DNA of 64,000 bases from Candidatus Magasanikiibacteriota bacterium. GTDB taxonomy: Bacteria; Patescibacteriota; Patescibacteriia; Magasanikbacterales; UBA922. The translations under genes and the position numbers were made by a program. The notes under the pieces are model-generated. The model made no database searches. It had not been told where the DNA came from and saw nothing but the letters and a program-made list of their open reading frames with translations. Of the stretch, positions 1,262 through 45,743 are shown one piece after another (the stretch's first letter is position 1; each line of letters opens with the position of its first letter). Location: assembly GCA_052034405.1 (NCBI GenBank), contig JBPOIO010000023.1, positions 15,340-79,339 on the forward strand, given 5' to 3'.

Positions 1262-4135
1262 ATGTCCGAAAAAAAGCTCAATAAAGCCCAAGAAGAGGCT
1301 GTCCGCTATACGGATGGGCCGCTTTTGATTGTGGCTGGAGCTGGGACTGGGAAAACCACCGTTATTACCGAAAAGATAGCCTATTTGATAGAAAAAGAAC
1401 TGGCACATCCTGGACAGATTGTAGCGCTTACCTTTACCGACAAGGCTGCTCTTGAAATGCAGGATCGTGTGGACGAACGCCTTGAGTTGCCCTATAGCGA
1501 TATCCATATTTCCACTTTTCATACTTTTTGTCAGCGTTTACTCGAGCAGTATGCCCTTGAAATTGGTATTCCAAATAAATTCAAACTGATTACTGAGACT
1601 GATGCATGGCTTCTTATACGGGAGCATATCTATGAATTTGATCTCAAATATTTTCGTCCTCTTGGAAATCCCACACGCCATATACATGAATTTTTGAAGC
1701 ATTTTTCAAAATGTAAAGATGAAATTATTTCTCCCGAAGAATATATTCAGTATGTAAAATCTACATCCTTTGAAGATAGCGAAGAACAAGAACGTCTTGG
1801 TGAACTTGCTCATGCTTACCAAAAATATAACCAGCTCCTTCTTGAAAAAGGCTATTTGGATTTTGGCGATCTTATTTATTACTGTGTCAAACTGTTTCGT
1901 GAACGTCCAAATATTTTGAAACGTATTCAAAATCACTACAAATATATTTTGGTCGATGAGTTTCAGGATGTGAATTATGCGCAGTATCTTTTAACACAAT
2001 TACTTTCACAAAGTGCACAGCTTACAGTCGTGGGAGATGATGATCAAAGTATATACGCCTTTCGCGGAGCCTCTGTTTCAAATATTTTGAAGTTTCAAGA
2101 AGATTTTGGCAATGCAAAAAATATTGTCCTCAACGAAAATTATCGTTCGGATCAAAAAATATTGGATGCTGCCTATACATCGATTCAAAACAACAATCCT
2201 GATCGACTGGAAGTAAAATTACATATTGATAAAAAACTCAAGGCCGGAGTAAATTATCCAAAAGCGGCGGTTGTCCATTTGCATTCTCCTACACTTGCTG
2301 CAGAAGTAAAAAGTGTTGTTGAAGAAATTATACGTCTCAAAAATGAAAGTCTCTCTACGAGTTGGGACGATTTTGCAATTCTTGCACGTGCCAATAGTCA
2401 TGTAGAACCATTTATCCAGGGCCTTGAAAAAGCGGGGATTCCCTACGAATTTCTTTCGTCGATTGGACTCTTTCACCAACCCCTTGTGATGGATGCTATC
2501 AACTATTTCAAAATTTTGGATAATTATTTTGATTCTTCGGCATTGTATCGATTGCTGCGTATTGCATGTCTTGCTCTCTCAGAAGAGGATATGCAAAAAA
2601 TTACTTTCAATGCCCAAAAAAAATCTCTTTCTTATTATGAAGTCCTTTTGATCGCAGAAGAGCTCGAGCTTTCTGTAGAGGGTATTGAAAAATCAAAAAA
2701 GATTATTGAACTCATTCAAGAAGGTCTCATTGAATCTCGAAAAGAAAAACCTTCAATACTTTTGTATCACTTTCTTGAACGAAGTGGAGTACTCAAATAT
2801 TTGACAGACGAAGAGAGAAACGATAATCAATATATCATTCACCAGATTTATCAGCTTAATCAATTTTTTGAATTGCTCAAACAGTATGAAGAGAGCAATT
2901 CAGATGCGCATATACAAGGATTTTTGACGCAGTATAACTATACGATTGAATCGGGTGACGAAGGAAAAATGTACCAACCTGTTGACACTCCAGACTCGGT
3001 GAATATTTTGACTGTGCATGGATCTAAGGGGCTTGAGTTCAAGTATGTGTTTATTATCAACATGGTCGAAGAGCGTTTTCCTTCGCGTCGTCGAGGAGAA
3101 TCTCTTGAAGTTCCTGCCGCCCTCATCAAAGAAGGCCTTTCAGAAGGGGATTATCACTACCAAGAAGAACGTCGGCTTTTTTATGTTGCCATGACGCGTG
3201 CCAAAGAACGCTTGTATTTTACGAGCGCGAGTAGTTATGGTGGTGTACGAGAAAAAAAACTCAGTCGATTTTTGGATGAGCTCGGATATACAGCAATAAA
3301 AGGAGAAAAAATTCAGGCTTCAACAGAAATTATTGCCAGTCAAACGACTCCTCGACAGAGTATGAGCTATCAAATACCAGCATCATTTTCTTTTTCGCAG
3401 ATAAAATCCTATCAAACTTGTCCCTATCAATACAAACTCGCGCATATCATAAAAATTCCTACAAAAAGTAATGCCCATTTTAGTTTTGGAACCAGTATTC
3501 ACAGCACTTTCCAAAAATTTTATGAACAGGTGCAAGCGCTCAATACGCCAGCAACAAACTCAGTGATTGTTCCAAGTCTGGAGGAGCTTCTCGAAATCTA
3601 CAAAGCAAGTTTTATTTCCGATTGGTATAAAGATGCTGTGCAAAAAGAAAGTTACTTCAAAAAAGGACAGGAAATTTTGAAACTGTTTTATACTTCACAG
3701 GAAAATAATTGGCGCGTACCAGTAGCCCTTGAAAGTGCTTTCAAAATAAAAGTGGGGGACTATACACTGCGTGGACGCATTGATCGTATTGATCAGCTCC
3801 CAGATGGTACACTTGAAATTATTGATTACAAGACAGGAGAGAGTAAAGACAAGCTCACTGCCGAAGACAAAGAACAGCTTTTGATTTACCAAATAGCAGC
3901 CGAGACCAATCCGCAGTATCGTCATTTGGGTCGTGTTGAAAAGCTGACATTTTTTTATGTAAATGATACTATACAGATGTCTTTTGTGGGTAAAGAAAAA
4001 GAATTGGAAAAATTGAGTGAAAAACTCCACGAAACGATCAGGGCAATTCACTCAGGGGATTTTACTGCAAGTCCCTCTCCATTTATTTGCGCACATTGTG
4101 ATTTCAAAGATATTTGTGAATTTCGAAGCCTTTAG
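1262..4135 (+). CDS. UvrD/PcrA-family superfamily 1 helicase fused to C-terminal PD-(D/E)xK (RecB/AddB-like) nuclease domain with Cys cluster
   Basis: Walker A AGAGTGKTTV. UvrD motifs (VDEFQD, TVHGSKGLEF, YVAMTRAKERLY). C-terminal RIDRIDQLPDGTLEIIDYKTGE nuclease core. Terminal FICAHCDFKDICEF cysteines. Confidence 0.8.
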   Translation: MSEKKLNKAQEEAVRYTDGPLLIVAGAGTGKTTVITEKIAYLIEKELAHPGQIVALTFTDKAALEMQDRVDERLELPYSDIHISTFHTFCQRLLEQYALEIGIPNKFKLITETDAWLLIREHIYEFDLKYFRPLGNPTRHIHEFLKHFSKCKDEIISPEEYIQYVKSTSFEDSEEQERLGELAHAYQKYNQLLLEKGYLDFGDLIYYCVKLFRERPNILKRIQNHYKYILVDEFQDVNYAQYLLTQLLSQSAQLTVVGDDDQSIYAFRGASVSNILKFQEDFGNAKNIVLNENYRSDQKILDAAYTSIQNNNPDRLEVKLHIDKKLKAGVNYPKAAVVHLHSPTLAAEVKSVVEEIIRLKNESLSTSWDDFAILARANSHVEPFIQGLEKAGIPYEFLSSIGLFHQPLVMDAINYFKILDNYFDSSALYRLLRIACLALSEEDMQKITFNAQKKSLSYYEVLLIAEELELSVEGIEKSKKIIELIQEGLIESRKEKPSILLYHFLERSGVLKYLTDEERNDNQYIIHQIYQLNQFFELLKQYEESNSDAHIQGFLTQYNYTIESGDEGKMYQPVDTPDSVNILTVHGSKGLEFKYVFIINMVEERFPSRRRGESLEVPAALIKEGLSEGDYHYQEERRLFYVAMTRAKERLYFTSASSYGGVREKKLSRFLDELGYTAIKGEKIQASTEIIASQTTPRQSMSYQIPASFSFSQIKSYQTCPYQYKLAHIIKIPTKSNAHFSFGTSIHSTFQKFYEQVQALNTPATNSVIVPSLEELLEIYKASFISDWYKDAVQKESYFKKGQEILKLFYTSQENNWRVPVALESAFKIKVGDYTLRGRIDRIDQLPDGTLEIIDYKTGESKDKLTAEDKEQLLIYQIAAETNPQYRHLGRVEKLTFFYVNDTIQMSFVGKEKELEKLSEKLHETIRAIHSGDFTASPSPFICAHCDFKDICEFRSL

Positions 4136-4137
4136 CT

Positions 4138-4437
4138 ATGTCAATGACCCTTCTCGGTGACGCTCTCAAAAAACGAATGGGTATGGATAGACCTTTGCAA
4201 GCGCAGGCCGAGGCTGGTCTTTTGATTTCCCTTGCAGGAAGCATTCTCAATGATTTTGTGGGACCAGATAATAGCAAATATATAAAACCACTTTTTATCA
4301 AAAACCGTACGCTTACGATTACCTGTGCTTCTTCGGCACTTTCCCAAGAAATTCACCTCAATCAAGCAAAAATAATCAATCAAATCAATGAAAAGTTTGG
4401 TCAAAATGCCCTCGACCGTATTCGCTATTTGCTCTAG
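4138..4437 (+). CDS. DUF721-like (DciA-like) small protein
   Basis: 99 aa. Pattern LLGDALKKR...SILNDFVGPDNSKYIKPLFIKNRTLTITCASSALSQEIHLNQAKIINQINEKFG resembles the DUF721 family. Confidence 0.45.
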   Translation: MSMTLLGDALKKRMGMDRPLQAQAEAGLLISLAGSILNDFVGPDNSKYIKPLFIKNRTLTITCASSALSQEIHLNQAKIINQINEKFGQNALDRIRYLL

Positions 4438-29067: not shown

Positions 29068-31908
29068 CTAGCCCCCACGCTCCATGCGTTGGCGCTTTCT
29101 TCGGTCTTTTTTACTCTCATGCTTTTTTCCATCATTTTGAACTGTGCGTACTGCTTTTTGGGATACCTCACTACTTCCCTCTTGGACCAAGTTGTCGTTG
29201 GCCATAATTGTTGGCACGAGTTCAATTCCATGCTGTACCTTATAAAATGCATAGACCACCTCTTTTTGGATATTGAGAAGAAGTGCTTGAAACATTTGAT
29301 AGGCCTCGCGTTTGTATTCAATAAGTGGATCACGCTGTCCATATCCACGAAGACCAATACCGGTGCGCAAATAATCGATATTGATAAGATGTTCTACCCA
29401 AAGCGTATCAATACTACGAAGAAGCAATGACTTTTCAATCGAATGCATTATTTTGTTTGCTTCTTCGGGATTCACTTGTAATTTTTGAATTGAGTTTTCA
29501 ATTTTTGTATATTCTTCTTTTGCTCGACCAAAAAGATACTGGATTATTTCTTCTTTTGCTTCGATTTCTTCGAGTTTTCCAGATTGCTGATGCGCTCCCA
29601 TTTCAAAAACTTTTGCCTTATCAGCTTCTGTAAATGAATATATTGTTGCCATTACCTGACAAATTTCTTGAAGATTCCAATCTCCATGTTCACGACTTTC
29701 TTCATTCTCAACTTCTACTTCCAATTTTTGAGTATGAAATTGTACAACTTGTTCGATTTCATTTTCTACAGAATTCAAAATCATGTCTTTAAGTGAGACA
29801 AATTTTACTTCTTCAACTTTTTCCAATTCTTCATCAACTTCTTCTTCGTCACTCACAAGAGGACTTGGTTTTTCTGTTATACCAATTTCCATGTCGTAGA
29901 GTTCCAAAATATTTTTTCGTTTTTTATATATAACAGAGCGATGACGATTGAGCACATCATCATATTCAAGCAAATGTTTACGAATATCAAAGTTATGACC
30001 TTCTACTTTTTTTTGTGCATTCTCAAGAATTCTTGAAATCATGTTTTGTTCAATCGGCATGTCGTCTGGCACCTTCATGCGTGTCATCACATTTTTGAGA
30101 CGATCCCCAGCAAAAATACGCATCAAGTCATCGTCTGTTGAAACAAAAAATTGTGTTTCTCCAGGATCTCCCTGACGACCAGAACGTCCACGAAGCTGAT
30201 TGTCGATACGACGCGCTTCATGACGCTCGGTTCCAAGGACAAAAAGTCCACCAGCAGATTTTACAATTTCAATATCCTCTGCACTCGCTGGCGTTCCACC
30301 AAGTTTGATATCCACACCACGTCCAGCCATATTGGTAGCGAGGGTCACTGCTCCAGGTCGTCCGGCTTGGGCAATAATTTCTCCTTCACGTTCATGATTT
30401 TTTGCATTCAAAATTTCGTGAGTGATACCAAGACTATTCAAATAGTTACTCAAACGTTCATTTTTTTCTACAGAAATAGTACCCACCAAAATTGGCTGTT
30501 GTTTTTCTCTACATTCTTGAATTTTTTTTGCAACGGCTTTGAATTTTACGACTTCATCTTTATAGATTCGATCTGGCAAATCCACGCGTGCAGCAACTTT
30601 ATTGGTTGGGATAACCAACACATCGAGGTTATAAATACGACGAAATTCTTCTTCTTCTGTTTGCGCAGTACCTGTCATACCAGACAACTTTTTGTACATG
30701 CGGAACAAATTTTGAAATGTAATCGTCGCAAGTGTTTGACTCTCACGTTGAATTTTTACATTTTCTTTTGCTTCAATTGCTTGGTGAAGTCCTTCACTAT
30801 AACGGCGACCTTCCATTTTTCGTCCAGTAAACTCATCAATAATCATGACTTCATCTCCATCAACCACATAATCTTTGTCACGTTTGAAAAGCACTTCGGC
30901 TTTGAGCGCTTGTTCAATATGATGAATTGTTCGAATACCAGCTTCTACATAAATATTTTCAATACCGAGCCATTTTTCAAATTTTTCAATACCTTGCTCA
31001 GTCAAATTCACACTGCGCATTTTTTCATCTTTGTTATAATCGGTATTTTCCGAAAGTCCACGAACGAGTTTTGCAAATTGATAATATTGATCATTGGCAT
31101 CTTCATTTGGTGCAGAAATAATAAGCGGTGTACGAGCTTCGTCTACCAAAATAGAATCAATTTCATCGACAATCGCATAATGCATTTCATTGCCTGGTCG
31201 CATAACCATTTCTGAAATATCCTGGACCATGTTATCACGCAAATAATCAAAACCATATTCGTTATTGGTTCCGTAGGTAATATCACAAAGATATGCTTCT
31301 TGACGACTCGAAGCTCGCAAATATTCATTTTCTACTTTGAATACTTGTACTTCATTTTCTTCACTCGAAATAGTTTCTGCGCTTGGAGCGATAACACTTG
31401 GGTCAAAAACATAACTCACACGCATGTTTTGGATAATACCCGTAGACATGCCAAGAAAATGATAAATTTTCCCCATCCATACAGCATCACGACGTGCGAG
31501 ATAATCATTGACTGTTACTACGTGTACACCTTTGCCTTCAAGTGCATTGAGATAGGCCGGAAGTGTTGCTACCAATGTTTTTCCTTCACCAGTTCGCATT
31601 TCAGAAATCATACCATTATGAAGTGCCATACCACCAATCAGCTGCACATCAAAATGACGCATACCCGAAACGCGTTTTGCTGCTTCACGCACAGTGGCAA
31701 AAGCCTCGGGAAGAATATCATTCAAAACTTCTCCCTCTGAGAGACGTTTTTTGAATTCAGCTGTTTTGGCTTTGAGTGCATCATCTGAAAGCGCAGAAAA
31801 ATCAGCTTCTAGAGCATTGATTTGTTCAACAACTTTTTGATATTGCTTAATAATCTTGGAATTTTGACTCCCAAACACTCCTTCGTAGACAGATTTTAAA
31901 AGACTCAT
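29068..31908 (-). CDS. secA: Preprotein translocase ATPase SecA
   Basis: MRHFDVQLIGGMALHNGMISEMRTGEGKTLVATLPAYLNAL. DEAD-like motor. 946 aa. Confidence 0.9.
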   Translation of the reverse strand: MSLLKSVYEGVFGSQNSKIIKQYQKVVEQINALEADFSALSDDALKAKTAEFKKRLSEGEVLNDILPEAFATVREAAKRVSGMRHFDVQLIGGMALHNGMISEMRTGEGKTLVATLPAYLNALEGKGVHVVTVNDYLARRDAVWMGKIYHFLGMSTGIIQNMRVSYVFDPSVIAPSAETISSEENEVQVFKVENEYLRASSRQEAYLCDITYGTNNEYGFDYLRDNMVQDISEMVMRPGNEMHYAIVDEIDSILVDEARTPLIISAPNEDANDQYYQFAKLVRGLSENTDYNKDEKMRSVNLTEQGIEKFEKWLGIENIYVEAGIRTIHHIEQALKAEVLFKRDKDYVVDGDEVMIIDEFTGRKMEGRRYSEGLHQAIEAKENVKIQRESQTLATITFQNLFRMYKKLSGMTGTAQTEEEEFRRIYNLDVLVIPTNKVAARVDLPDRIYKDEVVKFKAVAKKIQECREKQQPILVGTISVEKNERLSNYLNSLGITHEILNAKNHEREGEIIAQAGRPGAVTLATNMAGRGVDIKLGGTPASAEDIEIVKSAGGLFVLGTERHEARRIDNQLRGRSGRQGDPGETQFFVSTDDDLMRIFAGDRLKNVMTRMKVPDDMPIEQNMISRILENAQKKVEGHNFDIRKHLLEYDDVLNRHRSVIYKKRKNILELYDMEIGITEKPSPLVSDEEEVDEELEKVEEVKFVSLKDMILNSVENEIEQVVQFHTQKLEVEVENEESREHGDWNLQEICQVMATIYSFTEADKAKVFEMGAHQQSGKLEEIEAKEEIIQYLFGRAKEEYTKIENSIQKLQVNPEEANKIMHSIEKSLLLRSIDTLWVEHLINIDYLRTGIGLRGYGQRDPLIEYKREAYQMFQALLLNIQKEVVYAFYKVQHGIELVPTIMANDNLVQEGSSEVSQKAVRTVQNDGKKHESKKDRRKRQRMERGG

Positions 31909-31925
31909 AAAAAACAGGGTTTAAA

Positions 31926-31954
31926 TAGTTGCCGTATTATAGCATGGTAGAGCT
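31926..31954 (-). promoter_or_regulatory. Sigma70-like promoter for secA, TGGACA-17-TATAAT on minus strand
   Basis: Reverse complement of 31949-31954 is TGGACA. Reverse complement of 31926-31931 is TATAAT. Spacer 17 nt. About 18 nt upstream of secA ATG. Confidence 0.45.
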
Positions 31955-31955
31955 C

Positions 31956-31988
31956 TTTTGTCCATATAAAAAAAGTGGCTAAAATAAG
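31956..31988 (-). terminator. Intrinsic terminator downstream of hpf
   Basis: AAGTGGCT (31963-31970) pairs with AGCCACTT (31977-31984). U-runs on both strands. Confidence 0.55.
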
Positions 31989-32013
31989 CCACTTTTTGTG
32001 AATTTCCCAAGGT

Positions 32014-32400
32014 TTAGCCCCCTTCGTATTCTTCACTATAGTCGTCGTTATCTTCGTCTACATCATACTCTTTTTGACCCCGAATTTCATCTTTATCAAT
32101 ACGACGCATTCTTTCTTTGACATCTTCAAGTTCTACTTTGAGATGATCTTTTACTTTATCAATTGCTTTATAAAGGTCTTGTTCTTCTTTGACCACACGA
32201 AGAGTGCGACCAGGAATATCAAGAGTCACTTCTGCATAAAAAATTTCACCTTTGTTGTGATGATGACTTTGCATCCCCACATCTATTTCTGCTTTTGTTA
32301 TATTATCAAAAAATTTTTCAAGACTTGTGATTTTTTCTTCAGCATATTCTCGAATTGCTGGAGTGAGTTCTATTCCTGTTCCGTGGATTGTGATAATCAT
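32014..32400 (-). CDS. hpf: Ribosome hibernation promoting factor (HPF/RaiA family) with acidic tail
   Basis: MIITIHGTGIELTPAIREYAEEKITSLEKFF matches the HPF N-terminal beta-alpha-beta-beta-beta-alpha fold. Confidence 0.8.
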   Translation of the reverse strand: MIITIHGTGIELTPAIREYAEEKITSLEKFFDNITKAEIDVGMQSHHHNKGEIFYAEVTLDIPGRTLRVVKEEQDLYKAIDKVKDHLKVELEDVKERMRRIDKDEIRGQKEYDVDEDNDDYSEEYEGG

Positions 32401-32417
32401 ACATTGTACGGTTAAAA

Positions 32418-33353
32418 CTAAATCAATTGAATTTCTTCTTCTATAGATATTCCAAATTTATTGTACACTTTTTCTTTTATTTCATCAATGAGAGTCAAAA
32501 CATCACTCGAACTTGCACTCCCAAGATTTATAATAAAATTTCCATGCGTATCGCTTACTTTTGCATTTCCTACCTGAGCCCCTTTCATACCCGCTTTATC
32601 AATAAGCCATCCTGCAGAAATAATTCCTTTTTGTTTGAATTCTTCAGGTACTTCAAAATTGAGTTTTGCTTGTCCAATTTCAAAATTTTTAAAAATACAA
32701 CCGGTAGATGCAAATCCCTGTGGTTGAGTCTTGCTGCGATATTGCAAAAACTCCAATGCTTTTTTCATGCCGTCTTTGTTTTCGGATTTTTCAAGTTTTA
32801 AATGCACTCGTAGTACCACAGCACCACTGTCTTTGAACATACTATGACGATAGTGAAAATCACACTGCGCATTGCTCAGCATTACCAGCTCACCATCCAT
32901 ATAGGCTTCGATCTTTTCTACATTATTACTCATGTCACTTCCCATAGCTCCTGCGTTTCCTCGAACCGCGCCACCAATAGTACCAGGCACTCCCACGCCC
33001 CATTCAAATCCAATAAAACCTTCTTTCATGGAGAGATTGGCAATGGCAACGGTACTGCATCCAGCATCTGCAATGATCCCAGTATCTGTCACTTCTGTTT
33101 TTTTTGTGTTGATATTGATCACAACACCTGTATATTCACTATCAGAAGCAAGCATATTACTACCACCACCGAGGATAAATCGTTCAATCCCCTCTTCGTC
33201 AAGAAATTTGAGGAGATCTACCAGCTTGTCAGTTTCGTCAACAACAACAAAAAGTTGGACTGGTCCACCAATTTTGAAGGTTGTATGCTTACTCATGGGC
33301 TCATTGAGCTTCACTTTTCCGTAGTTTTTGAGCTTTTTATAAAGTTCCATCAT
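32418..33353 (-). CDS. murB: UDP-N-acetylenolpyruvoylglucosamine reductase
   Basis: FAD-binding domain (TTFKIGGPVQLFVVV, ILGGGSNML) and C-terminal MurB domain. Confidence 0.85.
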   Translation of the reverse strand: MMELYKKLKNYGKVKLNEPMSKHTTFKIGGPVQLFVVVDETDKLVDLLKFLDEEGIERFILGGGSNMLASDSEYTGVVININTKKTEVTDTGIIADAGCSTVAIANLSMKEGFIGFEWGVGVPGTIGGAVRGNAGAMGSDMSNNVEKIEAYMDGELVMLSNAQCDFHYRHSMFKDSGAVVLRVHLKLEKSENKDGMKKALEFLQYRSKTQPQGFASTGCIFKNFEIGQAKLNFEVPEEFKQKGIISAGWLIDKAGMKGAQVGNAKVSDTHGNFIINLGSASSSDVLTLIDEIKEKVYNKFGISIEEEIQLI

Positions 33354-33354
33354 A

Positions 33355-33383
33355 TTGCCATAATCAAATTTTTGTCCTATACT
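33355..33383 (+). promoter_or_regulatory. Candidate promoter TTGCCA-17-TATACT for ATP-grasp gene
   Basis: TTGCCA 33355-33360, 17-nt spacer, TATACT 33378-33383. Predicted TSS ~33390, i.e. about 94-nt leader. Confidence 0.45.
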
Positions 33384-33385
33384 AA

Positions 33386-33483
33386 GGTCTACGCATTTAA
33401 CCTTTTCGCTTTCCTCGCCCTGGGCTCGGGGATGCCCTCTGCGGAGGTCGTAACCCGCTCAAAGGTCAAATGCTTACGCCCTT
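33386..33483 (+). promoter_or_regulatory. GC-rich structured 5' leader (candidate riboswitch or cis-regulatory RNA) of ATP-grasp gene
   Basis: About 65% GC in an AT-rich genome. Long-range helix GCATTTAACC (33393-33402) with GGTCAAATGC (33464-33473), 9/10 bp. Several internal GC hairpins (GGGC...GCCC, GCGG...CCGC). Lies between promoter and ATG at 33484. Confidence 0.35.
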
Positions 33484-34689
33484 ATGCATATGCCAAAAAT
33501 ACTTTTTTACATTACTCGAGATATCGAAAGAGCACTTGGCCTTTCTGTAGATAATGAAGGCTATTTTATTATCTCAAATTCTACCCCCTTTAGCAAGCAA
33601 ATCGCTCTTTTACATCCAAATGTTTTACTTGTTGAAGAAAGCCAACTTCTTGATACCCATGAACTTTTGCAAAAGCAGAGTGTTCAAGATTTTATTACGC
33701 AAAATTCAAATAACATGAAGCCAAATATTTTGGTTTTCAAAAATACTTCTATTATTGAAAAAATTTGTACAGAAAACAATTGGAATCTCCTCAATCCAAG
33801 TGCAAAACTCTCTCAAATGATCGAAGAAAAAATTACACAAGTTGAATGGCTCGGGAGTCTCACAAAATATCTTCCTCCACACAAAATTCAAATTGCCCAT
33901 GATGTTGTGTATGACGGCATGCCATTTATTTTGCAGTTCAATCGTGCACACACGGGACTAGGAACGATGATGATTTCTTCGACTGAACAACTTGCCGAAA
34001 TACAAAATAAATTTCCGGATCGTCCTGTTCGCATCACGCAGTTTATTGATGGTGCCATGCTGACGAGTAACAATGTTGTCTGTCCTGATAAAGTTTTGGT
34101 TGGCAATATCAGCTACCAGATTACCGGTACGCCACCATTTACAGATAATCCATTTACAACTATTGGCAATGATTGGGCCCTTCCACATGTTTTGTTGAAT
34201 GATGAGTTGAAAGCGCAATACCATACGATTGCCACAGAGATTGGAAACAAACTTCGTGAAAGCGGATGGAAAGGACTCTTTGGAATTGACGTTATACTCG
34301 ATACAGCAGAAAATAAATTGTATTTGATCGAAATCAATGCAAGGCAACCAGCAAGTACCACTTACGAAAGTATTTTGCAAGAAAAAAATACAACTTTTGC
34401 TGCACACCTCTCAGCGCTCACAGATACTCCAAGTAACGAATTAACTCAAATCACAACAGGTGCGCAGATTATTGTTCGCAATGGTGAACTCATGCAAGAC
34501 AAAACCCAAGATACGATTATCCAAAACTTAAAAAACCTCAATTTTGATCTGAACATCATCCCCTACACCAATACAGACCCAGGTTCAGATTGGATTCGCA
34601 TTCAGACAACCCAGTCTTTATTTACAGAACATAATAAACTCAACGAACTTGGAGAAAAAATAAAAAAAACTCTTGAAGAGTCTCTATAA
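33484..34689 (+). CDS. ATP-grasp fold ligase (possibly a divergent D-Ala-D-Ala ligase or other peptidoglycan amino-acid ligase)
   Basis: C-terminal ATP-grasp signature GLFGIDVILDTAENKLYLIEINARQPAS, analogous to Ddl RVDFF...YLNEINTMPGFT. Adjacent to murB. N-terminal Ddl motif GGxSxEHEVS absent. Confidence 0.7.
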   Translation: MHMPKILFYITRDIERALGLSVDNEGYFIISNSTPFSKQIALLHPNVLLVEESQLLDTHELLQKQSVQDFITQNSNNMKPNILVFKNTSIIEKICTENNWNLLNPSAKLSQMIEEKITQVEWLGSLTKYLPPHKIQIAHDVVYDGMPFILQFNRAHTGLGTMMISSTEQLAEIQNKFPDRPVRITQFIDGAMLTSNNVVCPDKVLVGNISYQITGTPPFTDNPFTTIGNDWALPHVLLNDELKAQYHTIATEIGNKLRESGWKGLFGIDVILDTAENKLYLIEINARQPASTTYESILQEKNTTFAAHLSALTDTPSNELTQITTGAQIIVRNGELMQDKTQDTIIQNLKNLNFDLNIIPYTNTDPGSDWIRIQTTQSLFTEHNKLNELGEKIKKTLEESL

Positions 34690-34702
34690 AATGAAGGGTA
34701 AC

Positions 34703-34828
34703 GGACGGGCTGTGGTAAGTTGAGATGCTCGACCAAATCAACTATTCCATCTTCAGTTGGTATGCGTGTTGGAGTGACAACAAGCTTACCTACTGATAAA
34801 GGAAACCATTCGGCTACCCAGCCCGTCC
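34703..34828 (+). ncRNA. Candidate structured GC-rich RNA element (unknown class)
   Basis: Closing helix GGACGGGCTG-(T)-GGTA (34703-34717) with TACC-CAGCCCGTCC (34815-34828), 14 bp. Internal hairpins CAACT/AGTTG and TGTTG/CAACA. No ORF. GC far above background. Ends just before a TATATAAT box. Confidence 0.3.
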
Positions 34829-34865
34829 GCCCATATATAATCACAACACAGCATAATTGTCAACT

Positions 34866-35660
34866 ATGAACAACAAAACTCTCTCACAACCCGCACTCGA
34901 TATTATCAAAAATTATTCTCAGCTTGTCTTTGGCGACAAAAAAATAAACTGCCCCTACTTCAACAACCGCCGCAGCAAAGTTCGCGCAGGGTTGCGGGTA
35001 ATGATTGGAAAAGGCAACCCAGAAGAAATTATTGACGAAGCAAATCTTTTTGCACTCCGAGAAAAAATTGATCTCAAAAATTTATCAAGCGAGGCAATAA
35101 AACAATTTCTCGTTGATCACAATCTTGGACTTGATTGTTCTGCCTTTGCCTATTATATTTTGGCAGCAGAATACGCAAGCAAGACAAAAAATAAACTTTC
35201 TTCCAAGATATTTTATCCAAATATTGGACTTTTGCGAAAACTTCTCACCAAACTTCGCCCTGTAGAAAATATTGGGGTCAAAACTTTGGCACAGGAAAAA
35301 AACTCACATCTTGTTTCGCTCTCTGACACTGCTCCGGGAGACTTTGTAAGTATTTTAAATTCAGGAAAAGAACACAACCTCAATCATATCCTCGTCATTT
35401 ACAAAGTTGAATACGAAGAAAACCAGCCAAAAACATTGTACTATGTACATTCTTTTCAATGGTCCACAGATGGAAAATATAATCATGGAATAAAAACAGG
35501 GCGCATTGAAATTACTGATACGAAAAAAACACTGCTCGAGCAAAAATGGATTGAATCCGAAAAAACAGCTGAACAAAATGAAACTTACCTCCGAGCAAGT
35601 GATGCCGAAGTACTCGAACTCAAACGACTGAATGTATTATTAACAAAAAATCCTGCTTGA
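34866..35660 (+). CDS. Hypothetical protein (265 aa)
   Basis: ORF track 34857 (TTG) with first ATG at 34866. Followed by a terminator. Confidence 0.5.
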   Translation: MNNKTLSQPALDIIKNYSQLVFGDKKINCPYFNNRRSKVRAGLRVMIGKGNPEEIIDEANLFALREKIDLKNLSSEAIKQFLVDHNLGLDCSAFAYYILAAEYASKTKNKLSSKIFYPNIGLLRKLLTKLRPVENIGVKTLAQEKNSHLVSLSDTAPGDFVSILNSGKEHNLNHILVIYKVEYEENQPKTLYYVHSFQWSTDGKYNHGIKTGRIEITDTKKTLLEQKWIESEKTAEQNETYLRASDAEVLELKRLNVLLTKNPA

Positions 35661-35680
35661 GTGCAGGTTTTTTTATTTTT
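35645..35680 (+). terminator. Intrinsic terminator
   Basis: CCTGC (35652-35656) pairs with GCAGG (35663-35667). Then TTTTTTT (35668-35674). Overlaps the stop codon. Confidence 0.55.
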
Positions 35681-35777
35681 CTTCTAAATACCTCCGAGGA
35701 GATTTTCAAAAGGAAGGTCCGCGCGAAGTGCACGGAAGGATGGCGGCCCAATATCCGCCAGAATAGGGTTGTTTCGC

Positions 35778-36197
35778 CTAGAGCTTGCGCAGCTCGGCGA
35801 GGACGACCCACATATTCGAGACGTAGAGGTAGTAGCGCTGGAACAGATCGCTCGTGGCGGTCGGGATTCGTTCAAAATCCCCAGTCGCCAGATCTGCGGG
35901 CTCATTGCTGTAGCCCATTTCACGGAGGCAGCGCATCACCTCGGCAATGACCGACTGAATCCGCTGGTACTTCACGCCCATCGGATCAGCGTTCTTCACC
36001 CAGTTGAGCAGCAGCCCACGGATGGCCGAGAGGTGTTCCGCCTCCGAGTCATCACGATCCGCGCCAAAAACCTCTCGCAGTCGAAGTCCGTACATGACGG
36101 AAAAACTCCTGGCCCCGTCTGGGACAGGGCGAACTTGGTGTGGCTTTTGGCCACCATGGCCGCCAGCCTTTGTCGTTCCAGGACAATGGGGCACCAA
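35778..36197 (-). CDS. Hypothetical protein on a high-GC island (probable horizontally acquired gene)
   Basis: Region 35700-36230 is ~60% GC. Minus-frame codon third positions are strongly GC-biased (over 70%), whereas the antisense plus ORF 35769..36326 is not. Possible internal start at MYGLRL... Confidence 0.45.
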   Translation of the reverse strand: MVPHCPGTTKAGGHGGQKPHQVRPVPDGARSFSVMYGLRLREVFGADRDDSEAEHLSAIRGLLLNWVKNADPMGVKYQRIQSVIAEVMRCLREMGYSNEPADLATGDFERIPTATSDLFQRYYLYVSNMWVVLAELRKL

Positions 36198-36334
36198 TTA
36201 AACGAACGAGCACCAAATAAGGAGTTTATTATATTTTTAAAATTTATATGTGGACGAATGGAACGACCCACAAATCTACCACAATTCCTCTCCCTTGTCA
36301 ATCCCCACATTCTCTGCTATACTTGAAGAAAAAT

Positions 36335-37465
36335 ATGCCTATTTCAGCAGAATCTATCTCTCTTCTTCGAGAAGCCATTTTATTTGGTCTTGTTTCTTGT
36401 TTTTCAGCATTTCTATGGGCACCAGCACTCACCAAGATCCTCTACAAATACAAAATCGTCCGCAACAACCCCTACGACCCAACCCTCGCTATGGAAGGAC
36501 GCAAAGACAAATCTGGCATCCCTATTATGGGAGGCCTTTTGATTATCATCACCGTTGCAGTCATTACTATGCTCTTCAACTGGGAGCGCAAATTTACTTG
36601 GGTACCAATCTCGGTCATGCTCCTCGCGGCACTGCTCGGTGGCGTTGACGACGTACTCAATATCTATGGTGAAAAACGCCGCAATCGTGACCTCAAACAT
36701 ACCCTGCGTCTCATCCGCATTCACAAAAATATTTTTACCCGCATCTGGCTGACTCTCACACTGCCATGGGCCCTGTTCAAACGCACTTCCCTTTGGCTGG
36801 GTTCACATCCTGGCAAAGGTATGCAGGTTCATGAACGACTACTCCTCCAATTTGTCGCAGGCGCTATCACAGCATGGTGGGTCTACTTCAAGCTTGGTGA
36901 ACACTGGAGAGAAATTCATATTCCATTTGATGGCTTTCTCAATATTGGCTGGTGGATTATTCCGCTCATCATTTTCTTTGTCATGTTTACCGCCAATGCA
37001 GTGAACATCGCAGATGGTATGGATGGTCTTGCAGGAGGATCTCTGATCACCACTTTTTCTGCTCTCACAATTCTTTCTTGGATTGCAGGGTACCACGAGA
37101 TTACACTGCTCAATGCTACGGTTGTTGGGGCACTTATTACCTATACCTATTTCAATATCAAACCAGCGCGTTTTCAAATGGGCGACGTTGGCTCACTTGG
37201 CATGGGCGCACTGCTTGCGATCAATGCTATTGTGATAAATCACATGCTCCTCTTGCCGCTTCTTGGTTTTATTTTTTATGTAGAAATTTTGAGCGTGATA
37301 GTCCAAATCTTTGGCCGCACTTTTCTCGGGAAGCGTATTTTCAAAATGGCGCCACTCCACCACCACTTTGAACTCATGGGTTGGGGCGAAGAAAAAACTG
37401 TCATGCGTTTTTGGATTATTCATGCAGCGTTTGTACTGCTTGGTATTTGGGTTGCCTTGTACTAA
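36335..37465 (+). CDS. mraY: Phospho-N-acetylmuramoyl-pentapeptide transferase
   Basis: NAVNIADGMDGLAGG, MGDVGSLGMGALLA, KMAPLHHHFE. ATG at 36335 (ORF track start 36248 lies in the GC island). Confidence 0.9.
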   Translation: MPISAESISLLREAILFGLVSCFSAFLWAPALTKILYKYKIVRNNPYDPTLAMEGRKDKSGIPIMGGLLIIITVAVITMLFNWERKFTWVPISVMLLAALLGGVDDVLNIYGEKRRNRDLKHTLRLIRIHKNIFTRIWLTLTLPWALFKRTSLWLGSHPGKGMQVHERLLLQFVAGAITAWWVYFKLGEHWREIHIPFDGFLNIGWWIIPLIIFFVMFTANAVNIADGMDGLAGGSLITTFSALTILSWIAGYHEITLLNATVVGALITYTYFNIKPARFQMGDVGSLGMGALLAINAIVINHMLLLPLLGFIFYVEILSVIVQIFGRTFLGKRIFKMAPLHHHFELMGWGEEKTVMRFWIIHAAFVLLGIWVALY

Positions 37466-37476
37466 ACAAAAATAGT

Positions 37477-38178
37477 ATGAAAGAATATCTGAAATGGGAT
37501 GAACAAATAATTACAGACTTCTCAGACGAAAACATCAATAACCTTTATGACAAAGGTTATGTTTTTACTCGAAAAGAAAAAGGCCTGATGCATCAAACCC
37601 GCAGTGTCCGAATAAATCTCTCCAAATTTGACCTCAGTAGCGAAAATCGCCGCATTTTGCGAAAAACCGAAAATATTCAAATGGGCATCATCCCACTTCC
37701 CTTTCCAGATTATCATTGGAGTATTGGTAAACTTGCCAAAGATTTTTATGATACAAAATTTGGTGACGGGACATTTAGTGCAAACAAAGTCAAAGAATTG
37801 TTGACTGACAGAAATAAAAGCAACTTTACTTCGCTTTTTGTTTATTTTTCTGTAGCAATTCCAAAAGACCCAACAGCACCTATTGCAGTTGATCCTGAAA
37901 ATATTTTTGGATATTGCATTGCCATTGAAACAAACAAGATTCTCCATTATTCTTATCCTTTTTATGATCTTGAAACCGCTCCAAAAGACATGGGAATGGG
38001 TATGATGACCCGTGCCATTCAATCTGCCAAAGCAAGTGACAAAAAATATATCTACCTTGGTAGTGCACAGCGCCCAAACGATACCTACAAATTTCAATTT
38101 GAAGGTATTGAGTGGTTTGATGGTGAAAAGTGGCAGACTGATTTTGAAGAGTTGAAAAGTATTTTACAAAAAATATGA
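37477..38178 (+). CDS. Aminoacyl-tRNA--protein transferase family protein (ATE1/Bpt-like, GNAT fold)
   Basis: C-terminal YIYLGSAQRPNDTYKFQFEGIEW resembles the ATE_C/Bpt motif YLGYWI...KM.YK..F.P.E. N-terminal region is ATE_N-like. Start at internal ATG 37477. Confidence 0.5.
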   Translation: MKEYLKWDEQIITDFSDENINNLYDKGYVFTRKEKGLMHQTRSVRINLSKFDLSSENRRILRKTENIQMGIIPLPFPDYHWSIGKLAKDFYDTKFGDGTFSANKVKELLTDRNKSNFTSLFVYFSVAIPKDPTAPIAVDPENIFGYCIAIETNKILHYSYPFYDLETAPKDMGMGMMTRAIQSAKASDKKYIYLGSAQRPNDTYKFQFEGIEWFDGEKWQTDFEELKSILQKI

Positions 38179-45236: not shown

Positions 45237-45265
45237 TTGACAAAACGAGCAAAATCATGTATACT
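45237..45265 (+). promoter_or_regulatory. Consensus sigma70 promoter TTGACA-17-TATACT
   Basis: TTGACA 45237-45242, 17-nt spacer, TATACT 45260-45265. Drives the GC-rich unit downstream. Confidence 0.5.
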
Positions 45266-45335
45266 GCAAGGTCCTTGTTTGGATGTTCTTTGCAAGGGTG
45301 GCACTATTTTCTTTTTATAAAGTGAAAAAAAGAGA

Positions 45336-45584
45336 ATGTTGCCACCCTTGACCACTGACCCAACTGAGGAGAATGTCGTGATTTTTCGCGTGAATTTGGA
45401 AGAGGCACGCCGTATGCGTGCAATGCTGGAGTGGTGGGATAAAAACCACCACAAGATGCACATCATCAAGCCGATCATCACAAACCACAACAACAACCAA
45501 GGGACGCTCGACGTCGAGCTCCCGATCTCGCCCGACGATTCGTGCGACCTCCTCCCCTCGGCCAGCGGCGAATTCCGCCTCTGA
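45336..45584 (+). CDS. Small GC-rich ORF (82 aa), possible horizontally acquired gene fragment or coding part of an sRNA-like unit
   Basis: GC3 about 80% in the 3' half (ATC ATC AAG CCG ATC ATC ... GAC GTC GAG CTC CCG). Start codon enclosed by 11-bp hairpin CAAGGGTGGCA (45291-45301) with TGCCACCCTTG (45339-45349). Tandem terminators downstream. Confidence 0.35.
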   Translation: MLPPLTTDPTEENVVIFRVNLEEARRMRAMLEWWDKNHHKMHIIKPIITNHNNNQGTLDVELPISPDDSCDLLPSASGEFRL

Positions 45585-45616
45585 GCAAAACACGGCGCCA
45601 CGCGCCCACGACAGCC

Positions 45617-45685
45617 CCCGTCCGCCCTCACTTCGAGGCGCGGACGGGACAAGAAAAAAGCAGCTTTTTCAAAGGCTGTTTTTTG
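45617..45685 (+). terminator. Tandem intrinsic terminators
   Basis: 13-bp GC stem CCCGTCCGCCCTC (45617-45629) with GAGGCGCGGACGGG (45635-45648). Then CAGC (45661-45664) with GCTG (45675-45678) plus TTTTTT. Confidence 0.55.
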
Positions 45686-45743
45686 TTGCCTTAGCTATAG
45701 AAAAATGATACACTTAGTGCGATAATTTTGATCTAAGTTTTTA

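Follow-up and report, generated by a model that had tools for sequence, protein, structure and literature searches.

A 189-nucleotide structured insertion between two cell-wall-related genes of a Magasanikbacterales bacterium, tentatively read as an antisense small RNA gene

In a 64,000-nucleotide (nt) stretch of DNA from a Candidatus Magasanikiibacteriota bacterium (GenBank assembly GCA_052034405.1, contig JBPOIO010000023.1, positions 15,340 to 79,339 of the forward strand; hereafter the window, numbered from its first letter), a strongly folding segment lies between a gene for an ATP-grasp protein (33484-34689, plus strand) and the next gene downstream, here called gene B (34866-35660, plus strand; 264 amino acids (aa), with an NlpC/P60 (C40 peptidase) domain, PF00877, in some homologues). 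Why are two cell-wall-related genes, which in most relatives overlap, abut or are fused, held 176 nt apart by such a structure, and what could the structure do? A first-pass annotation, made from the letters of the window, had described a structured RNA-like element that could be an independent small RNA, a stability element in a 3′ untranslated region, or the aptamer of an unknown riboswitch. What it overlooked is that the element is a discrete insertion splitting two genes that are normally translationally coupled or fused. Of its three options, the independent small RNA fits best, with signals on the minus strand, which had not been considered. The insertion is tentatively read here as a gene for an antisense small RNA of about 165-175 nt, transcribed from the minus strand across the ATP-grasp/B junction.

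The extent of the insertion can be determined from relatives in which it is missing. In blastn comparisons of the window with the close relatives L003 and L004 (genome loci used for comparison carry L numbers), the alignment is interrupted precisely at 34675|34865. The sequence of the empty site is CTCTTG|TATGAAC, where the two genes share an ATGA stop/start overlap, and that of the occupied site is CTCTTG[AAGAG...GTCAAC]TATGAAC. Thus, the breakpoints and the junction sequences define the whole cassette as an insertion of 189 nt (34676-34864). Comparison of empty and occupied alleles revealed no target-site duplication at the junction, and the empty sites look exactly like the ATGA overlap of outgroups. 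The insertion provides the last four codons of the ATP-grasp gene (EESL) and its stop codon (34687-34689), i.e., the end of the upstream reading frame is supplied by the inserted DNA, and it is the insertion that accounts for the spacing of the two genes. This spacing was compared across 80 genome loci with an ATP-grasp gene: in more than 60 of them B overlaps that gene (ATGA), directly adjoins it or is fused to it, and seven homologues (668-674 aa) are fusions of the two proteins. Larger gaps at the junction (about 400-570 nt or 1.8 kb) are other insertions or a NUDIX domain.

The junction is a hot spot for additions of several kinds. Some loci carry a NUDIX domain or gene there, L005 and L059 have insertions of about 1.8 kb, and L216 has an unrelated AT-rich insertion (1869-2500) with a minus-strand open reading frame (ORF) of 181 aa. 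The gaps at the same junction in L009, L039, L008 and others hold short hairpins or repeats unrelated to the element; in L009, for example, GGATTCCCGCCTACGCGGGAATGAC-like units of unrelated sequence lie between the ATP-grasp gene and B (4197-4287). A 144-nt palindrome of repeated CATTCTGGCGAAAGCCAGAATCCAGAATT units, also unrelated in sequence, follows B in L028 (4989-5132).

The inserted DNA folds strongly. The 14-bp closing helix with internal hairpins that the first-pass annotation had drawn is present as described: on the plus strand, GGACGGGCUG-U-GGUA (34703-34717) pairs with UACC-CAGCCCGUCC (34815-34828) to form 14-15 base pairs (bp) with one bulged U. This helix, here called P1, encloses 97 nt (34718-34814), in which the minimum-energy fold places three internal hairpins around a four-way junction. 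The plus-strand fold has an energy of -64 kcal/mol, compared with -36.7 +/- 3.9 kcal/mol for 200 dinucleotide shuffles, none of which folded as well (z -7.05), and the trimmed segment 34696-34835 gave a z of -7.47. The minus strand of the element folds as well as the plus strand (-65.4 kcal/mol, z -6.6). Nearly all pairs are Watson-Crick pairs, with no G-U pair among 45. The GC content had been called far above background; it does exceed that of the whole window (0.38), but not by far, being 0.49 in the helix-to-helix core and 0.42 in the interior.

Could the element encode a protein? It had been reported to contain no ORF, which holds for conserved genes but not for mechanically called frames, of which one of 80 aa (34602-34844, minus strand) and one of 49 aa (34720-34869, plus strand) run across it. 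In six-frame translations of all variants no reading frame is kept, and the differences between the variants in L209 and L214 are essentially all non-synonymous in every open frame. Because no crossing ORF keeps its frame or its sequence in homologues, the element is not a gene for a protein, and the protein-coding reading was dropped.

The search for homologues in related genomes that the first-pass annotation had proposed was carried out by looking up close protein homologues of the flanking genes. Beside the window, it recovered occupied loci in L001/L002, L209, L211 and L214, which gives four distinct core sequences in total. L001/L002 are of the same species as the window (94.5% nucleotide identity overall) and have an identical core. 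The cassette is missing from L003, L004, L210, L212, L213, L215 and most of the 80 genome loci. A further locus, P0007, has a gap of 154 nt at the junction. In neighbour-joining trees, whether of the ATP-grasp gene or of B, close relatives with and without the cassette are intermixed. The two trees also conflict: the B proteins of L209 and L210, for example, are 95% identical, their ATP-grasp proteins 83%. Homologous recombination is thus frequent among these lineages, and it can account for the patchy distribution without transposition. Within the species, window positions 30485-37679 form a mosaic when compared with L001: stretches of 99-100% identity alternate with blocks of 61-85% (e.g. 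33534-33733 and 33984-34283), which points to frequent recombination within the population as well.

Comparison of the occupied loci separates the ends of the cassette from its interior. When the variants are compared with one another, identity is 0.48-0.60 at four-fold degenerate sites in the flanking genes, but 0.86-0.93 in the 5′ flank of the cassette, 0.85-0.96 in P1 and 0.84-1.00 in the 3′ flank. The interior is 0.60 identical between the window and L211, and 0.46-0.49 identical between what we call type A (window, L001, L211) and type B (L209, L214); by blastn, the two types align only over 41 nt at the start and 53 nt at the end of the cassette (92-98% identity). In the flanking genes the window is closer to L209 than to L211, yet the interiors of the window and L209 cannot be aligned, which argues for a replacement or a much older allele and against simple drift. 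Since the ends and P1 are far more identical than the four-fold sites, strong purifying selection acts on the ends and the closing helix, the interior being only loosely constrained to foldability and to a length of 94-100 nt. Each interior still folds well (z -3.4 to -7.5), and the interiors are richer in GC than the four-fold sites (0.42-0.59 vs 0.33).

The pairing itself has also been maintained. In P1, 9 of the 15 pairs are invariant, two are altered on both sides with pairing kept (C-G to A-U in L209, and U-A to G-C between types A and B), and one has changed from G-C to G-U (in L211). Between the window and L211, a double change from U-A to C-G leaves the pairing of helix P2 intact (AGUUGA/UCAACU vs AGUCGA/UCGACU). 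Thus, the element is non-coding and has a selected structure, as is expected of a small RNA gene.

From which strand would such a gene be read? On the minus strand, the 3′ flank reads CATAG-TTGACA-ATTATGCTGTGTTGTGA-TTATAT-ATGGGC-GGACGGG. Adjoining the start codon of B there is a perfect -35 hexamer, TTGACA (34858-34863), followed after 17 nt by a TG-extended -10-like block, TGaTTATAT (34835-34843), and both are invariant in all five occupied loci. Substitutions in this flank among the five loci fall only in the middle of the spacer and in the segment between the -10 block and the helix. The distance from the -10 block to the first base of P1 is about 6 nt; an alternative -10, TATATA, would have an 18-nt spacer. 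The combination TTGACA-N12-TGTGR occurs at two sites in the window, one in the element and one at 36301-36279 (minus strand), against 0.38 expected (5 of 100 shuffles reach two), and across all 217 loci there are these two kinds of site plus one stray match.

Beyond the interior, towards the ATP-grasp gene, the minus strand continues as P1-GUUACCCUUCAUUUUAU-AGAGACUCU-UCA-AGAGUUUUU-UUUAUUUUUU. Here, a conserved linker, GUUACCCUUCAUUUUAU (34686-34702), which is predicted to be single-stranded and on the plus strand contains the ATP-grasp stop codon, leads from P1 to a terminator-like hairpin, AGAGACUCU-UCA-AGAGUUUUU (34655-34685), of 9 A/U-rich bp and -6.7 kcal/mol, which runs into U8-A-U6. Eight bases to the left of the junction there is an AAA codon in all occupied alleles and a TCN codon in all empty ones, and the AAA codon extends the run to A8/U8. 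The full proposed minus-strand RNA (34829-34655, 175 nt) has a predicted energy of -68.1 kcal/mol (z -7.5).

Taken together, these features suggest that the cassette is a small RNA gene on the minus strand, a reading in which our confidence is a little short of even. Transcription would be directed by the promoter beside the B start codon (TTGACA, 17 nt, TG-extended -10) and would start at the first G of the closing helix or a few bases off. The RNA would then consist of the first P1 arm (34815-34828, the 5′ arm on the minus strand and the 3′ arm on the plus strand), about 97 nt of fast-evolving hairpins, the other P1 arm (34703-34717, the 3′ arm of the proposed RNA), the conserved, A/U- and C-rich linker UACCCUUCAUUUUAU, the short hairpin, and U8-A-U6. 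The operon is presumably still transcribed through on the plus strand, and the small RNA would pair with the read-through mRNA, i.e., it would exert cis-antisense control. Such pairing could uncouple or lower the expression of B, or trigger processing of the duplex. The complement of the linker, ATGAAGGGTA, was counted in the window as a test for targets in trans, and is not enriched (45 found, 54 expected).

The antisense model would account for three features of the element. The interior could drift freely and yet remain foldable on both strands because both antisense partners come from the same DNA, which would also give two strands that fold equally well with few wobble pairs. It would further account for the constancy of the frame alone: the conserved parts are those that read as promoter, closing helix, linker and terminator, which shows selection on exactly these. 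The reading draws on four distinct sequences. The fold, the limits of the insertion, its patchy occurrence, the selection on the ends and P1, the compensated pairs and the lack of coding capacity are shown by the data, whereas the strand that is transcribed, the 5′ and 3′ ends of the RNA and its antisense action are inferred.

Several observations weigh against this reading. The -10 is non-canonical, as TTATAT lacks the A at position 2 and TATATA lacks the T at position 6. A simple scan called neither the minus-strand promoter, because of the missing A in TTATAT, nor the terminator, because the hairpin has only two G-C pairs; at -6.7 kcal/mol that hairpin is weak, the terminator downstream of gene B reaching -11.6 kcal/mol. 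Some of the U-run arises simply from reading the conserved, Lys-rich end of the ATP-grasp coding sequence in antisense. Hexamers resembling a -35 are not enriched upstream of inverted repeats generally (30, against 34 in the control); it is the specific TTGACA-N12-TGTGR combination that is unusual. The covariation test that had been suggested found the compensatory changes in P1 described above, but P1 covariation was not significant against shuffle controls with four distinct sequences from five loci. In addition, folding energies, G-U counts and base composition are otherwise alike on both strands and favour neither. The few wobble pairs favour the plus strand (the G-U in P1 of L211 would be A-C if read from the minus strand), the plus fold of L211 is better than its minus fold by 8 kcal/mol, and an outer GGG/CCC helix, possible in a plus transcript only, can form in all five loci.

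The latter points lead to the strongest competing explanation, in which the element acts in cis on the plus strand, within the mRNA of ATP-grasp and B, as a stabilising 3′ hairpin or a processing site (e.g. for RNase III), with the insertion supplying a stop codon, an initiation region and perhaps a TATAAT promoter for B. We regard this as possible though rather unlikely, and the stability element of the first-pass annotation survives in this form: the position inside what is an operon in relatives speaks for it, and the minus-strand signals against. A perfect and invariant TATAAT is present on the plus strand (34836-34841), 24 nt upstream of the B start codon and within the box TATATAAT (34834-34841) that had correctly been noted upstream of the next gene. 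The wobbles that exist are G-U on the plus strand, in P1 of L211 and in type B (GCGAC/GUCGU and UGCGC/GCGUA), and the preference of L211 for the plus fold agrees with them. The flanks can extend the helix outward in 5/5 loci, through AUG/CAU as well as GGG/CCC; however, such outward AU-rich pairing is cheap and of low significance. The TATAAT has neither a -35 nor an adjacent TG and was not called by the promoter scan, and no U-run follows the helix. A plus-strand element also leaves unaccounted for the perfectly placed TTGACA, the conserved linker, and the AAA codon that is linked to the occupied allele and makes up A8/U8. The plus-strand and antisense models are compatible, as both strands could be transcribed.

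A second alternative is that no RNA is involved: the cassette could be a non-autonomous palindromic piece of DNA, either similar to miniature inverted-repeat transposable elements (MITEs) or a relic of illegitimate recombination, spread by homologous recombination or by a recombinase acting in trans, and its promoter and terminator signals would be incidental. The interleaved presence and absence, the conflicting trees of the flanking genes and the mosaic identity are all in keeping with this, as are the empty sites that equal the outgroup ATGA overlap, the equal folding of both strands almost entirely by Watson-Crick pairs (0 G-U in 45), and the other insertions received by the same junction (L216, L005, L059). 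Known palindromic repeats of bacteria provide a point of comparison. The Correia elements of Neisseria, the ERIC of enterobacteria and the RUP/BOX of pneumococci are multi-copy, have inverted repeats at their very ends, duplicate their target sites, and may bear outward promoters and give rise to hairpins in RNA. The element resembles them as a palindromic insertion of 100-200 bp in transcription units, polymorphic for presence at orthologous sites, but differs in occupying one locus, in having a subterminal repeat and no duplication, and in that its ends are conserved while its interior is not. Thus, of the features by which a MITE is recognised, the presence/absence polymorphism at orthologous sites is found, and terminal repeats and target duplication are not: the arms of the inverted repeat are set in from the boundaries 34676 and 34864 by 27 nt and 36 nt, respectively. 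There is a single copy in the window, with no further copies in the rest of it or in about 0.57 Mb of related loci, and phage, plasmid and viral collections gave no genuine matches. A palindrome without function would be expected to decay evenly, whereas the ends are 85-100% identical and the interior is at the neutral level or beyond; the compensatory changes in P1 also speak against it. We consider this explanation unlikely, and somewhat more so than the plus-strand element.

It is less probable still, though worth stating, that the cassette is a modular RNA gene, in which a constant, selected frame of promoter, 14-bp closing helix, linker and terminator carries a structured module of about 100 nt that is swapped or diversified between strains; types A and B, with their unalignable interiors between ends of 92-98% identity, would be two such modules. 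Strains would acquire or lose the whole unit at a single exact position between the two translationally coupled cell-wall genes. If this were true, bacteria of the Candidate Phyla Radiation (CPR) would possess a novel kind of RNA locus, exchangeable or programmable, the product of which would be, for example, a specificity-determining antisense, decoy or guide RNA and not an ordinary small RNA.

A riboswitch or other ligand-sensing leader for gene B, the third option of the first-pass annotation, is highly improbable: a compact multi-stem junction does adjoin the start of the gene, but junction and interior nucleotides are not conserved (0.46-0.60 identity, with types A and B unalignable) while the ends are, which excludes a ligand-binding aptamer, and the element is absent from most orthologous operons including those of close relatives, matches no Rfam aptamer, has no expression platform (neither a terminator nor a sequestered ribosome-binding site), and has its only plus-strand -10 box (34836-34841) downstream of the structure. 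A self-splicing intron is equally improbable. Introns have been reported to be frequent in Patescibacteria (PMC13011429), exact excision of 34676-34864 would recreate the ATGA overlap, and in some relatives the two frames are fused (668-674 aa); however, group I would require U as the last base of the upstream exon and G as that of the element, where there are G and C, respectively, the element starts with AAGAG instead of the GUGYG of group II, 189 nt is too small for a group I or II core, no Rfam intron matches, and the interior is not conserved.

Does the element belong to any RNA family already described? The Rfam search proposed earlier was run and found no known family anywhere in the window: with Rfam 15, zero families reached the gathering score across the 64 kb. 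Matches at 34500-35000 were noise (E >= 0.13, all far below gathering), including a weak match to SIB_RNA near the element (14.8 bits, E = 3), and the loci of L209, L211 and L214 likewise gave noise, with nothing at gathering score (E <= 10). ARAGORN detected no tRNA or transfer-messenger RNA (tmRNA) in the entire window. The earlier judgement that the element matches neither tRNA, signal recognition particle (SRP) RNA nor tmRNA was therefore borne out by ARAGORN and Rfam, and these, together with 6S RNA and RNase P, were rejected. An intrinsic terminator of the ATP-grasp gene on the plus strand was rejected also, in agreement with the first-pass annotation, since the helix is followed by GCCCAUAUAUAAUCAC without a U-run and the terminator scan called none. 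BLAST searches of phage and plasmid collections with the element gave zero matches. In a viral collection, the 3′ constant end matched nothing, the 5′ constant end had one match, within an unrelated coding region, and a two-arm pattern gave five matches, all by chance. A scan of metagenomes with GGACGGGCTG-N91-121-CAGCCCGTCC returned at least 120 matches, all of them chance matches on GC-rich contigs (GC 0.5-0.8) with similarity limited to the arms. The element is thus absent from the RNA databases searched and is without an existing family.

If it is read as an antisense RNA, the closest known systems are the plasmid copy-control RNAs CopA and RNAI and the type I antitoxin RNAs Sok and Sib, which are cis-encoded antisense RNAs with kissing stem-loops. 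Like these, the element would be a short structured RNA with a proposed promoter and terminator-like end of its own, lying opposite its target transcript; sense and antisense come from the same DNA, which drifts fast with stems foldable on both strands. It differs in that no toxin ORF or replication gene lies opposite, that the target would be the junction of a chromosomal cell-wall operon, and that its transcription is predicted. In Y RNAs, including YrlA, and in the msr-msd RNAs of retrons, the 5′ and 3′ ends pair in a closing stem around a variable module. The long end-pairing helix, conserved stem and variable multi-branched interior of the element recall these RNAs, but there is no Rfam match and no adjoining reverse transcriptase gene; a retron msr-msd was rejected, as the neighbours are the genes for ATP-grasp, the C40-like protein, MurB, SecA and the family-4 glycosyltransferase (GT4). 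The attC sites of integrons have the core sites RYYYAAC (R'') and GTTRRRY (R') at their ends. The element is similar in being an imperfect palindrome just 3′ of a gene, in which about 100 nt of variable centre separate conserved ends, and differs in that the core sites are absent, that there is no integrase or cassette array, and that its fold is branched. An attC site was rejected, as GGGTAAC has G where two pyrimidines are required and the opposite end lacks GTTRRRY. The element is best filed as a lineage-restricted addition to the broad class of bacterial small structured RNA genes, outside any existing family.

What makes this locus of wider interest? Regulatory RNAs of the uncultivated Patescibacteria (CPR) appear to be little described, and a search of the literature on them turned up nothing relevant. 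The element provides a concrete candidate for such an RNA, with exact boundaries, natural alleles with and without it, and predicted transcript ends. It also illustrates how two cell-wall-related genes can lose their translational coupling, or their fusion, to a small insertion that has expression signals of its own. Should the antisense reading be wrong, what remains is a clean intergenic palindromic insertion with selected ends and an unselected interior.

Other units near this operon bear upon the proposed layout. The scan scored the second TTGACA-N12-TGTGR site of the window and its homologue in L217 as promoters (10/12 and 11/12 matches, respectively, with TG), and about 5 nt further on each has a stem-closed RNA: a leader at 36267-36172 in the window and a unit at 1492-1338 (minus strand) in L217. 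Together with the element, these share TTGACA-N12-TGTGR-hexamer, 5-6 nt and then a long closing helix, and all three lie on the strand opposite to the ATP-grasp/B/GT4 operon. Beyond the promoter consensus there is no sequence similarity between the element and the other two, which are located downstream of B. The L217 unit has a 14-bp closing helix, about 125 nt enclosed, a 15-nt linker and a clear terminator (z -5.1), i.e., the same layout as proposed for the element; the 36.2-kb unit of the window, in contrast to the element, runs into a GC-rich ORF and has no terminator end. These units hint at a layout that recurs in the clade, in which a TG-extended promoter is followed at once by a long closing helix.

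The L217 unit is a candidate small RNA gene in its own right (1270-1530, minus strand, downstream of the B of that locus). Its promoter is TTGACA-17-TATATT (11/12 matches, TG), its helix GUUCCUGCGUAUUG/CAAUACGCAGGAAC and its terminator AAAAACACCC...GGGUGUUUUU. It has no Rfam match, and an ORF of 163 aa called across it is probably spurious.

The unit at 36.2 kb belongs to a GC-rich island (35700-36301; GC 0.55-0.61 vs 0.38) between B and the GT4 gene, which lies beyond B in the same operon; the island is also present in L001/L002. On its minus strand, the TG-extended promoter TTGACA-17-TAGATT (36301-36273) and the 96-nt stem-closed leader precede an ORF from an ATG at about 36095 to 35778 (MYGLRLREVF...AELRKL), for which Pfam gave no match. 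Facing the other way, on the plus strand, the promoter TTGTCA-17-TATACT (36295-36323) uses the same palindromic -35; it probably serves the GT4 gene, whose true start is then likely to lie about 87 nt downstream of 36248.

Another GC-rich island is found at 45237-45700. It has a promoter, TTGACA-17-TATACT (45237-45265), a long hairpin or terminator (45293-45350) and an 82-aa ORF (45336-45584) without a Pfam match, and a bidirectional terminator follows a 13-bp hairpin at 45617-45648. The arms of this hairpin contain GCGGACGGG, a 9-mer that also occurs in an arm of the element between ATP-grasp and B; the sharing is not significant, as 11 of 100 shuffles reach the count.

Upstream of the ATP-grasp gene lie the genes for SecA (29068-31908) and MurB (32418-33353), both on the minus strand. 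The divergent gap between MurB and ATP-grasp (33355-33483) contains a second GC-rich structured element (core 33386-33480), preceded by TTGCCA-17-TATACT (33355-33382) and with no Rfam match at E <= 5. In L004 (2134-2213) this element of about 80 nt is present in the opposite orientation, on the reverse strand, with 87.5% identity, and its closing helix shows compensation between the two copies (ACCUUU/AAAGGU vs AGCUUUU/AAAAGCU). It could be a leader or a small RNA whose orientation depends on the strain.

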